Below, one piece after another: positions 4,378 through 52,879 of a stretch of DNA of 64,000 nucleotides. The position numbers were made by a program, and so were the translations under genes. Numbering within the stretch: position 1 is the first letter of the stretch; the number at the start of each line of letters is the position of its first letter. The notes below the pieces were generated by a model. That model was not told where the DNA came from, searched no databases, and saw only the letters and a list, made by a program, of their open reading frames with translations. The stretch is taken from NCBI GenBank assembly GCA_964016885.1, contig OZ024754.1, forward strand, positions 5,084,001 to 5,148,000, in the 5' to 3' direction. Source of the stretch: Eledone cirrhosa (taxonomy: Eukaryota).

Positions 4378-4398
4378 GGAGACGAATTCATATACTAA

Positions 4399-4490
4399 GC
4401 ATATCTGACGACCTTTCGATTACACAGTCAGGTTTGATCTATAATAGATCTTACCTCGAGCTGATTGATAGTGAAACATATGTAATATGT
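4399..4490 (+). ncRNA. Minimal type I hammerhead ribozyme motif
   Basis: Stem I GCATAT(4399)/ATATGT(4485). Core CTGACGA 4405-4411. Long stem II with inner AGGT..GATCTA/TAGATC..ACCT. GAAA 4473-4476. Perfect palindromic stem III ACATATGT. Predicted cleavage after GUA at 4484. Confidence 0.75.
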
Positions 4491-4926
4491 CATTAAATAT
4501 GATATCATGCAACACTGAATCCTTGTTCCTTATAGCATTTGTGTGTGTGCGTGTATGATGATATATATACATATATGATGATATATATGTATTATATGTA
4601 TGTATATATGTCTGTGTGTGTGAGATTTCTCTAGAACCTACTTTCTTTCTTTCTCTCTCTCTCTCCAAATCAAACTGCTGGTGTGTTGTGTGCATTATTG
4701 AATAGGGTGGTGCATCATTTTGCAGCTGCATTGTCAGAAGGTGATGCATTTGTAACAAAAAATATATATGCCCCCTCTCCCTCCTCTGACTGTGGTCTCC
4801 CTCTGACTCTCTCTCTCTCTCTCTCTGACTCTCTCTTTGTCTCTTCCTGTCTCTCTAAATAGATAAAATACAAGATGGGGTGTACATTCCATTAGATTCT
4901 TGTATCTTTAAAGCTCTAGGTTTTTG

Positions 4927-19352: not shown

Positions 19353-19476
19353 GTAGGAGGTGAGTTTTATTGTAGTACAATAAAGCAATGCAGATATCGG
19401 ATAAGAAGCACTCTACAGTTTGTGGGACTGGAGTATGCATAATATAAGATCAAAAGATGGTTAAAGGAGTTCCATA

Positions 19477-19547
19477 TATTTTATTATGCGTATTTCAAAA
19501 ACAAACATCATCAAACAATAATATTTGTGTTTTCATCAGATAAAACA
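19477..19547 (-). ncRNA. Minimal type I hammerhead motif (inverted copy)
   Basis: Mirror of 19662-19732. Stem III reads ATACGCAT, one change from the palindrome. Confidence 0.75.
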
Positions 19548-19661
19548 GGAGAACTTGATATGAAGGCTAAAAAACACTTGTTGATAGTGCAGTTTGAATA
19601 ATATGTTGATTTAAAACTGCACTATCAACAAGTGTTTTTTAGCCTTCATATCATGTTCTCC

Positions 19662-19732
19662 TGTTTTATCTGATGAAAACACAAATATTATTGTTTGATG
19701 ATGTTTGTTTTTGAAATGCGCATAATAAAATA
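19662..19732 (+). ncRNA. Minimal type I hammerhead ribozyme motif
   Basis: Stem I TGTTTTAT/ATAAAATA. CTGATGA 19670-19676. 16-bp stem II AAACACAAATATTATT-GTTT-GATGATGTTTGTTTTT with G-U pairs and one mismatch. GAAA 19713-19716. Palindromic stem III ATGCGCAT. Cleavage after AUA at 19724. Confidence 0.82.
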
Positions 19733-19839
19733 TATGGAACTCCTTTAACCATCTTTTGATCTTATATTATATATATATATATATATATGTGTGTCAATCA
19801 ATTTCTAGATGATATATAAATTTTTTTTTACCAAAAAAA

Positions 19840-33483: not shown

Positions 33484-34002
33484 GCTGGTGTTTAGAATAT
33501 ACCTTAAAGAAGGTTCTTATATAACACCTTGATGGCAGGCTTTAGGTAAATAAATATCCAAAAATCCATCATCCAGGGCCTTCTCATTCCTGTAGGAATC
33601 CAACCCTGGTTGATCTCCAATGTTTCCTATCTTTGGCCATATTAAGCCAAAGTATCTGGTCAGATCATCACATCAACTGGCCTATGGCCACCCTCTGGTT
33701 CTTCTCCACTGCCTTGGTGTCCAGTTTAAAACTAGTTAGACCATTACTCAACAGAGTACTCAATACTACGGTTAGTAGAGTATGGCTATATTACAGAGAG
33801 TCGGGATCTGATGGCTGAGCTCTTTATAATAATATGTATATATATTATATATACGTTGACTCAGGGACGACGAGGCAGTGTAGTGGTATGCTGCTTCATT
33901 CATCTCTGGGTCAAAATTATAAACACACAATTTCTGTCTTCTGTGTTTTTTTTCTTTGCTTGTTTCCATAAAGTTTACCATCTTTCCGTTGGTATACCCC
34001 TA

Positions 34003-34102
34003 TTACGCAATTTACACCTGAAGATGTCATCGGGTTATGCAATTTACATCTGAAGATATCATCGCGTTATGCAATTTACACCTGAAGATGTCACCGGGTT
34101 AT
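34003..34102. repeat. 32-bp tandem x3 containing a hammerhead 5' half
   Basis: TTATGCAATTTACACCTGAAGATGTCA.CGGG, with CTGAAGA at 34018, 34050 and 34082. Confidence 0.9.
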
Positions 34103-34140
34103 TTCGCAGCCTGACCACTGAAATGTGCATAGTGTTTGCA
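34070..34140 (+). ncRNA. Minimal type I hammerhead motif, partly decayed
   Basis: Stem I TGCAA-ttt-ACAC / GTGT-TTGCA. CTGAAGA 34082. Imperfect stem II (GTCA/TGAC, GGTT/AGCC). GAAA 34120. Stem III ATGTGCAT. UA at 34130-34131. Confidence 0.6.
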
Positions 34141-38808: not shown

Positions 38809-38860
38809 GTGTATACAATTGATATTAAATAAATGGAAGTTATATTTATAAAACCATATT

Positions 38861-38922
38861 TATTCTATTATATATTTTTCAAGGGTACCAAACATTTTGG
38901 TACGCTCTCATCAGATAAAATA
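38861..38922 (-). ncRNA. Minimal type I hammerhead motif (same family as 45830)
   Basis: Minus strand: TATTTTAT-CTGATGA-GAGCGTACCAAA-ATG-TTTGGTACCCTT-GAAA-AATATA-TA-ATAGAATA. Confidence 0.75.
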
Positions 38923-39085
38923 CAAAATGTTTCATAAATATTTGACATATCCAAGGATAATATACCTTAACGGTTCAAGTTATCCCTGGAAAGTATATAT
39001 TGGGTATTAATCGATCTACGGTACGAACCCTACCACGAGAGGTAGACCACACCGAACAAAAAATGTGTGTGCGCGTATATATATA

Positions 39086-39557: not shown

Positions 39558-40132
39558 CCAGTACAACCTGTCTCATGGTCGGGTCGTTGGCGACTAAACT
39601 GGCAACCCCACCAAGGTTTCTTGGTGAGGAGGGTGACTTTGGACATCCTGCAGGACTAAAAACAAAACCTATCAAAGGGCAAAGGAGCTCTTAAGAGTCA
39701 ACGGCCATCCAAAATCACCGGGAGAGATGACCCCTTAGTCTTTGTCAAGGCAGATTTCTAGGAGAAGGAAAACTCTGATATAACACCTGCAACCCTGATG
39801 GTATCCAATGATGTTGACATGTTCTTCTTTTTGGTAAATATCATCTTCGTTAAGAGAGTGGGACTGGCTTTATGCAGTGCCTTTGCTCACTATAAAAGCT
39901 TCACGGCACAGGCATTGCTTTATATCTGGAGATCTCTCTGCACTTGTCGTCGTCCTATGGTACCAAGGGCCCAGCACTATGTGTCAATAATTGTCACAAG
40001 TGTAGTGTTTGTACCAGAGTTTTCAAGTCGCTGGCTGGACTAAAAAGTCACACTCGTTCAGCGGATCGGTAGGAATTCTCCTACATGGATATAAAGTAGT
40101 GGCCGTACTCGAAAACGAGTTGGCAGCCACCA
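39558..40132 (+). mobile_element. Non-autonomous or internally deleted RTE-clade LINE derivative
   Basis: RTE-type 5' motif GGAGAAGGAAAACTCTGA at about 39761. 39992-40072 translates as CHKCSVCTRVFKSLAGLKSHTRSADR*, like the C-terminal zinc finger of RTE/BovB-type ORFs. No RT domain lies between them. Confidence 0.65.
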
Positions 40133-40332
40133 TATATATATATATATATATATATGTCATTATCATCATCATCATCCTCGTCGTTTAACGTCTATTTTCC
40201 ATGCTAGCATGGGTTAGACGTATATATATATATATTTGTAGTAAGGTTGCTTGGATGCGTCCATAGGCGGTATGCCGGTTGAGCATTCTATGCTCCTTCG
40301 GAGCAGAGTATGATTTGCTTCGAAATCACTAG

Positions 40333-45453: not shown

Positions 45454-45488
<35 letters not shown>

Positions 45489-45622
45489 TCGAAAGGGTAT
45501 TTAATTTGTTGGAAGTCCGACAAATATAAATGTTTATAACTGATTTAGAGCACTCAACAGTTTACTGGAGTAAATATTCAATGATATTAAATAAATGGAA
45601 ACTATATTTATAAAACCATATT

Positions 45623-45686
45623 TATTCTATTATATATCTTTCAAGGGTACCAAGACAACATTGGTACGCTTTCATCAGATAAAATA
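45623..45686 (-). ncRNA. Minimal type I hammerhead motif (inverted copy)
   Basis: Exact mirror of 45830-45893. Confidence 0.75.
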
Positions 45687-45829
45687 CAAAGTTTGTTTTA
45701 TAAATAGAGACGTACCCAGGAAAATCATACCTTATCGGTTGGAAATTTACTAGATAGACTATACAGTGAATTTCAAACCGATAAGGTATGATTTTCATGG
45801 GTACGTCTCTATTTATAAAACAAACTTTG

Positions 45830-45893
45830 TATTTTATCTGATGAAAGCGTACCAATGTTGTCTTGGTACCCTTGAAAGATATATAATAGAATA
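45830..45893 (+). ncRNA. Minimal type I hammerhead ribozyme motif
   Basis: TATTTTAT-CTGATGA(45838)-AAGCGTACCAA-TGTTGTC-TTGGTACCCTT-GAAA(45874)-GATATA-TA-ATAGAATA, with an 8-bp stem I including one G-U pair. Confidence 0.78.
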
Positions 45894-45927
45894 AATATAG
45901 TTTCCATTTATTTAATATCATTGTATG

Positions 45928-50732: not shown

Positions 50733-50839
50733 CTATGTGTTTGTTTAAATACATGTACTTTAAATAACTTCAGACACAGATACATATATACATTCATATA
50801 AATATATATTTTCTTCTGTTCATACACGTGTGTGTGCGT

Positions 50840-51606
50840 GTTTATATATATATATACATATTTGTGTGTCTGTGTGTTTATATATATATACATATTTGTG
50901 TGTGTTTGTGTTTATATATATATACATATTTGTGTGTGTTTGTGTTTATATATATATACATATTTGTGTGTGTGCTTATATATATATACATATGTGTGTG
51001 TGTCCTTATATATATATACATATTTGTGTGTGTTTGTGTTTATTTATATATACATATTTGTGTGTGTGCTTATATATATATACATATGTGTGTGTGTGCT
51101 TATATATATATATACATATTTGTGTGTCTGTGTGTCTATATATATATATACATATTTGTGTGTGTGCTTATATATATATACATATGTGTGTGTGTCCTTA
51201 TATATATATACATATTTGTGTGTGTTTGTGTTTATATATATATACATATTTGTGTGTGTTTGTGTTTATATATATATACATATTTGTGTGTGTGCTTATA
51301 TATATATACATATGTGTGTGTGTCCTTATATATATATACATATTTGTGTGTGTTTGTGTTTATTTATATATACATATTTGTGTGTGTGCTTATATATATA
51401 TACATATGTGTGTGTGTCCTTATATATATATACATATTTGTGTGTGTTTGTGTTTATATATATATACATATGTGTGTGTGTGCTTATATATATATATACA
51501 TATTTGTGTGTCTGTGTGTCTATATATATATATACATATTTGTGTGTGTGTGTGTTTATATATATATATATACATATTTGTGTGTGTGCTTATATATATA
51601 TACATA
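50840..51606. repeat. ~30-bp compound (TA)/(TG) minisatellite
   Basis: TATATATACATATTTGTGTGTGT... repeated about 24 times. Confidence 0.9.
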
Positions 51607-51754
51607 TGTAAGAGACTATTTTGAGTTCCTAACTCAATATATACCTTTGATATATTCGGCTCCGTTAATTTGTTGAGCTATTTCAAATGACGAATAAACC
51701 TGGCTGCTATTTTTAGCTGTGTGGGTTTGTGAGATGTGCTAGGACACCATGTGC

Positions 51755-51901
51755 GCTATTATAGTTACGGCCCTTGCCATTCTGAGTTCAAATCCCGCTG
51801 AGGTTAACTTTGCCTTTCATCCTTATGGGGTCTATAAAATAAAGTACCAGTAATACACTGGGGTATTGCTGGCCTTGTGCCAAAAGTAGAAACAATTATT
51901 A
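51755..51901 (+). mobile_element. SINE family A, 5'-truncated
   Basis: CTGAGTTCAAATCCCGCTGAGGTTAACTTTGCCTTTCATCC...GTAGAAACAATTATT. Confidence 0.9.
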
Positions 51902-51949
51902 TATATGGCACACTGTTCAGTTTCTTAATATACTTAGAAGTGTCTAGGA

Positions 51950-52041
51950 TACTAATTCATCACCCACTGATGAGCTTAAATTGGTAATTCTATTCACAAT
52001 TAACTTTGCGAAACAACACCAAGTTGTCTGGGTGATTGGTA
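51950..52041 (+). ncRNA. Canonical type I hammerhead ribozyme
   Basis: Stem I ATCACCCA(51959)/TGGGTGAT(52029), extendable past a bulge. CTGATGA 51967-51973. Stem II closed by G-C and C-G. GAAA 52010-52013. Stem III CAAC-ACCAA-GTTG. GUC cleavage after 52028. Confidence 0.9.
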
Positions 52042-52312
52042 GTTACCACAATTCTTGTTTGTATTTATTTTCTTGATTTTTTTCTTAAATTGAGACAAGC
52101 AAACCCTATTGTATTCTTTTCATCTTAGCGAATCAGGTCCCTTACAATTTGAACACATATAAGTATATGTCTGTGTTCGTTATTCTTTTATATTCTATTA
52201 TAATATACGGCTCGGAAATATCTCTTTCTTAGAGCTATTTTGTTGTAAGAGACTATTTTGAGTTCCTAACTCAATATATACCTTTGATATATATATTATA
52301 TATATATATATA

Positions 52313-52585
52313 TCATCATCATCATCATCATCACCGTTTTACGTCCGTTCTTCCACGCTAGCATGGGTTAGACGGGTTGTCCTGTTGTGGGCAGTGTCTG
52401 GTCAGCTGACCATGCCTTGCTCATACAGGAACTGATCTGGCTTGATTTCTACAGCTGGATGCCCTTCCTAACACCAACCTCATTTACAGTGAGTGCTGGG
52501 TGCTTTTTCGTGGCGCCTACAGGTCCACTTTACAGTGTGGGCTGGGTGCTTTTTTGCCGTGGCACCTCCACTACCACCTTGCGGT
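52313..52585 (-). mobile_element. SINE family B-related 3' portion
   Basis: TTTCTACAGCTGGATGCCCTTCCTAACACCAACCTCATTTACAGTG and a (CAT)n tail. Confidence 0.8.
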
Positions 52586-52879
52586 GGGGGGAGTGGGGGC
52601 ATATTGTTTATATGCTTCAGCATGTACCCATGGGAGGTCGGGTACCCTGTATTATTGCGTGACGCCAGAAGTCACGGTCGTGATATATATATATATATAT
52701 ATTTGTGTGTGTATGTATATATCAGCTTTACACACAAACAAGTAACCATAAAAGTATGTTTATTTATGAACACAGACAAGCAGTCAGCATGTTAATAAAT
52801 ATTATACACACAATCATTGGTGTATATATATATGTTAACATATGCCTTATGCCTTCACTGTTGTACTCTACACGTTTCA

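Follow-up and report, generated by a model that had tools for sequence, protein, structure and literature searches.

The segment at 51607-52292 of the window, by which is meant the whole 64,000-nucleotide stretch of Eledone cirrhosa DNA analysed here, is on balance probably a copy of a 497-bp non-coding hammerhead unit of non-autonomous Penelope type, whose repeated end would have arisen when a reverse transcriptase (RT) copied a head-to-tail linear transcript. The unit is multi-copy, with relatives in the reads of two studies (P1 and P5). The window copy itself is aged and decayed, is interrupted by a SINE and carries a short partial-tandem overlap. It is retrozyme-monomer-like, yet lacks the tandem arrangement here: the copy amounts to 1.1 units with a single hammerhead, and neither a tandem array nor a sibling unit occurs in the window. 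Unit GC is 33%, and the one insertion site available for inspection is (TA)n. The parts of the element and its surroundings are as follows.

50830-51606, no strand: left flank, a TA/GT minisatellite of 30-34 bp, from the sequence
51607-51655, plus strand: left 49-bp repeat, read as the preceding unit's 3' end; TGT at 51607-51609 is common with the flank, and the junction to 51656 recurs in X4 records 9, 10 and 11
51617-51641, plus strand: predicted hairpin in the repeat, with a 7-bp core (51621-51627/51631-51637) and a 3-nt loop; the same at 52254-52278
51656-51756, plus strand: non-coding 5' part of the unit; the match of most relatives ends near 51730
51757-51903, plus strand: nested 5'-truncated high-copy SINE, a 140-bp insert with TATTATA on both sides (51757-51763, 51897-51903)
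51959-51966, plus strand: 5' strand of stem I, 8 pairs with 52029-52036
51967-51973, plus strand: catalytic box CUGAUGA, matching the core
51974-52009, plus strand: stem II, two pairs at the core followed by a long imperfect insert; relatives that have AA at 51976-51977 reach 4-6 pairs
52010-52028, plus strand: GAAA box, stem III and GUC, with the predicted cut after C52028
52029-52036, plus strand: 3' strand of stem I, pairing with 51959-51966
52037-52243, plus strand: T-rich non-coding 3' part, from about 52136 the deepest-covered non-SINE part
52244-52292, plus strand: right 49-bp repeat, the family's main 3' end; its final ATATAT blends into (TA)n
52293-52335, no strand: right flank, (TA)n and then (ATC)n
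51690, 51717, 51718, 51735, 51915, 51978, 52056, 52123, 52146, 52162 and 52182: near-private changes of the window copy, at which more than 95% of X1 depth differs

The two copies of the terminal repeat (51607-51655 and 52244-52292) are 100% identical at a spacing of 637 bp, which confirms the identical 49-bp direct repeat of period 637 claimed by the first-pass annotation, as do the TA/GT minisatellite to the left and the (TA)n to the right for its claim of TA-rich flanks. For the SINE-free unit it gave about 490 bp; the 140-bp insert sets the size at 497 bp, and a SINE-free relative, X4 record 11, joins 51755 directly to 51896. Only about 40 bp of the repeat (51610-51649) are unambiguously element, for the TGT at its left edge both continues the minisatellite pattern of the left flank and equals the bases preceding the right copy, while the opposite edge merges with (TA)n. 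A common family variant at 52265 falls in the loop of the predicted hairpin. By BLAST the SINE extends over 51760-51906 and has more than 20 other matches in the window; this copy departs from the majority of 21 window matches at 7 of 144 columns, and ARAGORN found no tRNA. An internal sub-repeat of about 88 nt in the unit was set aside for lack of significance (25-59 of 500 shuffles were equally good). Repeats are plentiful throughout the window, 44% of which is masked as tandem repeats and which holds 52 further interspersed-repeat segments; another interspersed repeat, with up to six overlapping window matches, lies at 52337-52587, directly after the right flank. Across the left repeat border, GTAAGA at 51608, a pyrimidine run ending in AG at 51716 and GACACCATG at 51743-51751 follow one another as in an intron of a 5' UTR, each motif being common by chance; a 5' UTR intron is described for some Penelope-like elements (PLEs) in PMC8557442.

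The ribozyme motif is a type I hammerhead, with stem I open-ended. The intact core, 8-bp stem I, 4-bp stem III with a loop, and GUC triplet reported earlier are all present: a GAAA box at 52010-52013, four stem III pairs (52014-52017/52023-52026) around the 5-nt loop ACCAA, and the triplet at 52026-52028. The bulged extension of stem I reported with them is also present in the predicted fold. A descriptor demanding both boxes, two stem II pairs, at least three pairs in stem III and at least six in stem I is matched once in the window; at either of two stringencies, 100 dinucleotide shuffles contain no such site. An Rfam scan of the window gave no match at gathering score. The best relevant match is to the RAGATH-1 hammerhead (RF03152; 23.5 bits, E 0.23, gathering score 56.3), with which the core boxes, stem III and stem I align, although at a score so far below gathering the unit is not a member.

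Next to the core, stem II consists of G-C and C-G followed by U.U, U.U and an imperfect insert of about 30 nt, and internal loops are present in stems I and II. The lowest-energy predicted fold differs from the hammerhead, and the constrained hammerhead fold makes up 3e-4 (about 0.03%) of the ensemble for 51945-52045. Across four constructs, predicted pair probabilities are near 0 for stem II, 0.1-0.36 for stem III and about 0.8-1.0 for stem I, the last dropping below 0.1 with more flank. Given that the fold models ignore tertiary contacts of the core, a poor predicted fold lowers the expectation of activity and does not exclude it; the window copy is predicted to cut poorly. The proposal that this is the copy likeliest to self-cleave as a monomer survives in part: no other motif of the window has a stem III of at least three pairs, but with a stem II probability near 0 and a fold at 3e-4 of the ensemble, efficient cleavage is doubtful. 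In a recent test, one of nine predicted retrozyme dimers cleaved (bioRxiv 10.64898/2026.07.22.740005).

In 12 read-through frames the unit has no Pfam match at cut-off, hence no coding remnant, and the RT or GIY-YIG open reading frame of an autonomous PLE is absent from them. The suggestion that a plus-strand host transcript might have its intron cut by the ribozyme is unsupported, in that the 148 reading frames taken from elsewhere in the window yielded no Pfam match at the curated cut-off and no host exon. The best match in the window below cut-off, a single C2H2 finger (39896-40069, E 2e-4), was considered as a host exon and read instead as a LINE end, its frame ending just before a (TA)n run; the stretch 39896-40135, with this single-finger frame shortly before (TA)n, probably represents a truncated LINE at its 3' end.

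Relatives were sought in four of eleven public runs, none of the eleven being recorded as RNA, at a likeness cut-off of 80%. Runs X1 and X4 (organism A, study P1) are of unknown kind and may stem from the study behind the assembly; run X9 is a reduced-representation DNA library of organism A from study P5, and run X5 is from organism B. Summed depth in the non-SINE bins of X1, which is not a copy number and mixes diverged subfamilies in one profile, ranges from 2,119 to 141,549, compared with about 8-16 for the single contigs listed, and X9 reads cover all 30 bins of the unit. The family likely comprises hundreds of hammerhead-bearing copies, with 3' ends more numerous still. In X5, depth outside the SINE and its edge is 0-150, which means that organism B has few close relatives of the unit. 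Exact scans, of metagenome, viral and genome contigs for the 49-mer pattern and of metagenome and viral contigs for the hammerhead pattern, returned no match in these mostly microbial collections.

The reads are most informative about the terminal repeat. X4 records 9, 10 and 11 are three different contigs that run from the 49-mer into 51656 and beyond, each with 12-14 differences, and X9 depth is unbroken across the 51656 border (about 200, 187 and 232 reads in successive bins). On the other side, the bases preceding the right 49-mer are among the deepest, and 52136-52292 is deep in all three organism A runs. As the 49-mer is thus joined to both neighbours in many other copies, it is element sequence and no target duplication. 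The first-pass annotation had argued as much, and had named copies without the 49-mer as the observation that would speak for a local or target duplication; the relatives instead carry it, diverged as they are, next to both 52243 and 51656. Both junctions therefore recur in relatives, seen separately, as in a partial tandem (pLTR) of the element's own 3' end. No record spanning 52243, the 49-mer and 51656 occurs among the 15 listed of 607 joints, 13 of which lie inside the SINE, and we infer the head-to-tail joint from its two halves, each of which is seen in relatives. The + depth of X9 drops by about 95 along the right repeat and climbs by about 98 along the left, opposite changes that are suggestive of split reads over such a joint.

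Depth also differs along the unit. The 3' 160 bp are several-fold deeper in X1, X4 and X9, a comparison confounded by the mixture of subfamilies and by the X9 library type; in X9 the depth is about 490-950 over 52136-52292 and about 190-270 over 51653-51721. This appears to be the polarity expected of 5'-truncated copies with a common 3' end. X1 depth also steps across the cut site, from 7,789 at 52024 to 40,391 at 52038. Copies starting at the cleavage site were considered for this step and rejected: depth is back to about 9,200 at 52113-52135, and one abundant, diverged contig of X4, whose match starts at 52037, holds upstream sequence too. An X4 contig of depth 537, from an abundant diverged sister subfamily, matches only patches of the unit (to 51689, 52037-52112 and from 52164) in the same order.

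Variation among relatives suggests, at the level of sequence, that the ribozyme is maintained in the family. The core boxes and the triplet hold no variants among the 40 listed of 288 differing places. An X4 contig of depth 48 carries G52016 with C52024, a compensatory change of a stem III pair from A-U to G-C, and AA at 51976-51977 together with U52004, which would give a 6-bp stem II (G-C, C-G, A-U, A-U, G.U, A-U); its insertions fall only in loop III, and the outer stem I pair (51959) is lost. These pairs are read from one variant table of one contig and not from an alignment of full copies. By X1 depth, the AA form of stem II makes up about 38% and the UU form, the weak form of the window copy, about 62%. 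The window copy has drifted by at least 2%, given at least 11 non-SINE places where more than 95% of X1 depth differs from it (among the same 40 listed of 288), and one of these changes lies in stem II. Recopying of the SINE-bearing unit itself was considered and dropped, since with about 2% decay two repeats will still be identical often enough.

Because the copy spans both the cut site and the unit joint, its template would be either an uncut tandem transcript or a ligated circle. The first-pass annotation had proposed a monomer plus overlap, copied from a circular or tandem template. A template longer than one unit is indeed the simplest reading, the 49-mer being element sequence on both sides, but the circular version lacks a record crossing the whole joint among the 15 listed of 607. 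A linear tandem is favoured over a circle in light of the apparent common 3' end, a monomer that is not rod-like, the weak stem II of most copies and the use of uncut RNA by the one PLE tested. Under the linear reading, a helper endonuclease would nick a TA run, and copying would start directly past the small hairpin, at about 52286-52292, where most copies of the family end on the 3' side. The RT would then pass the uncut hammerhead, enter the previous unit and stop about 40 nt later, and the new end would join the flank through a 3-nt match (TGT). The SINE insertion and the accumulation of point changes would have come afterwards, and in the family at large the hammerhead would trim tandem transcripts.

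This account fits what is published on PLEs. Partial tandems, 5' truncation, a tail of 30-40 bp and (TA)n targets are described as PLE traits (PMC8557442; PMC3846280), and PMC11167929 reports nicking of AT-rich DNA, an RT that starts inside the RNA at a stem-loop and uncut RNA serving in vitro as the chief substrate. The 2026 preprint (bioRxiv 10.64898/2026.07.22.740005) derives retrozymes from pLTRs and describes monomers as frequent. The PMC8557442 supplement lists Naiad and Hydra PLEs of octopus that have a (TA)n preference, PLEs make up 6.83% of the Octopus vulgaris assembly (PMC13282606), and 235 hammerheads are annotated in the giant squid (PMC6962438). Short motifs of the unit are absent from the PMC8557442 supplement, and the likeness of the unit end to the 3' ends of two octopus Naiad consensus sequences, 6-7 nt by eye, is too slight to count. 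Two head-to-head hammerhead pairs of other families in the window are in keeping with the linear-template reading. Against it stand the joint known from two halves with no spanning record among the 15 listed of 607, the finding of neither a helper element nor a tandem array in the window, a full stem III more typical of retrozymes than of minimal metazoan PLE hammerheads as PMC7229834 portrays them, and a drop in depth near 51730 that it leaves unexplained.

A circular-RNA retrozyme is a less likely alternative. Tandem transcripts would be cut at C52028 and ligated to 497-nt circles, around which the RT ran 1.1 times, and a copy spanning the cut site and the unit joint is directly allowed. Copying of more than a unit from a circle is proposed in PMC4209133, and the circular model also in PMC7229834, where retrozyme circular RNAs are reported from coral, mussel and axolotl. 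The canonical stem III, with its compensatory change in a relative, speaks for a circle, as does a SINE-free circle whose fold is more stable than those of 60 shuffles (-112.3 kcal/mol, z -2.8). That circle is, however, 63% paired compared with 60% in shuffles and hence not rod-like, the family appears to have a common 3' end and not permuted ends, about 62% of X1 depth is of the weak UU form at 51976-51977, and the PLE studied in vitro used uncut RNA (PMC11167929).

Another alternative, which is unlikely, is that the unit is the internal-deletion product of a longer and more abundant Penelope element, broken near 51730 and with little life of its own. In its favour, depth falls between 51724 and 51735 in every organism A run (X1 from 3751 to 395, X4 from 71.6 to 5.0, X9 from 190 to 62 reads), and the 3' end is several-fold commoner than the hammerhead region. 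The fall lies 20 nt from the SINE break, however, and may reflect clipping or a second 3' end (tail). Further, the match continues beyond 51735 in about 11 contigs of X1 and in X9 reads that begin at about 12 places, and the same short unit is present in X4 record 11 with 37 differences in 316 nt, so the short form has itself multiplied; nor did the 12 read-through frames hold the remnant of an open reading frame.

Less likely again is a broader version of the circular account, in which the whole family spreads through a self-cut, re-ligated 497-nt circle. Dispersed copies would then be footprints of an RT that starts from the hairpin, goes once round and stops past the hairpin, and a two-state stem II (UU or AA) would set the rate of cutting.

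The remaining explanations are very improbable. A long target-site duplication, or a local duplication that arose here alone, might seem to follow from two identical 49-mers that share the minority allele C at 51628/52265, and retrozyme target-site duplications longer than 4 bp are described in PMC7229834; the junctions to 52243 and 51656 in many diverged copies largely refute it, and identity is expected of two ends drawn from one template (the probability of no difference is about 0.1 at about 2% decay, by our own arithmetic). A miniature LTR element with 49-bp LTRs would account for direct terminal repeats with TG at their start and is hardly credible, as there is no CA at the repeat end, TG is also the flank pattern, inspection revealed no TGG primer site or purine tract, and high depth extends over 52136-52292, beyond the repeat alone.

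Other hammerhead-like sequences occur in the window, and the likeness of the unit to the window's other hammerhead families is not significant (109-259 of 500 shuffles were equally good). At 19440-19775, two element ends lie head to head in inverted orientation, identical at 156 of 159 bases and flanked by (TA)n, each with a minimal hammerhead (CUGAUGA at 19539 on the minus strand and at 19670 on the plus strand) that has a 1-bp stem III and a tetraloop; the pair belongs to another family and is typical of a young inverted insertion of Penelope type. A second inverted pair with hammerhead-like cores lies at 45480-45926, with a third copy at 38810-38985 on the minus strand. Its left arm extends about 95 bases, in the manner of a PLE tail, past the end common to the right arm and the 38810-38985 copy, and its right arm is without 14 bases downstream of the core. 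At 34000-34140 a hammerhead-like CUGAAGA (34082) with GAAA-UGUGCA-UA is preceded by several repeats of about 31 bp, each with CUGAAGA, and at 4380-4527 a hammerhead-like motif with CUGACGA at 4405 and a long stem II region stands beside (TA)n.

Among known systems, the unit shares features with several. Like the animal non-LTR retrozymes of PMC7229834 and 10.64898/2026.07.22.740005, it is a non-coding unit of a few hundred bases with low GC, its type I hammerhead has a real stem III, and it has no LTR, primer-binding site (PBS) or polypurine tract (PPT); dispersed monomers are described for these retrozymes as well. Its 497 bp exceed the 150-450 bp given in the 2020 paper but fall within the 51-972 bp of the 2026 paper, by whose definition a unit with one hammerhead is not 'active'; the long stem II insert and the lack of a tandem array in the window also set it apart. 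With the endonuclease-bearing PLEs that possess pLTRs (PMC8557442, PMC3846280, PMC11167929, PMC4209133) it has in common the partial tandem, the TA target, the 3'-biased abundance, a sense-strand hammerhead upstream of the 3' end and a stem-loop at that end, and its overlap of about 40 bp is within the size range of the PLE tail. It differs from them in having no RT or GIY-YIG frame, and the short palindromic stem III of metazoan PLE hammerheads is unlike its own. Non-autonomous Chlamys PLEs such as MRC1 (PMC8557442) are similarly non-coding, with pLTRs and head-to-tail insertions, and have been mistaken for LTR elements; these are green-algal, however, and most, as that source presents them, are without a canonical hammerhead. 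The plant LTR retrozyme has a type III hammerhead in each LTR, a PBS and PPT, and a 4-bp target-site duplication, and the unit, with type I topology and a hammerhead outside the repeat, is not a member.

Hammerhead-bearing Penelope derivatives are common in animals, and one more such family is ordinary. The unit is a new family of a kind already known; literature searches found no published description of such a hammerhead family in octopus, and an octopus repeat annotation (PMC13282606) leaves ribozymes unmentioned in its main text and supplement. Whether a circle or an uncut tandem serves as the template is debated, circles being proposed in PMC4209133 and uncut RNA being found in use in vitro in PMC11167929. 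The circular reading, if true, would mean that the circular template long proposed for animal retrozymes had left direct evidence in a genome. With what are likely hundreds of copies or more, an apparently fixed 3' end and both strong and weak forms of stem II occurring naturally, the family could serve as a test case in which the two models would be separable from the ends of the copies.
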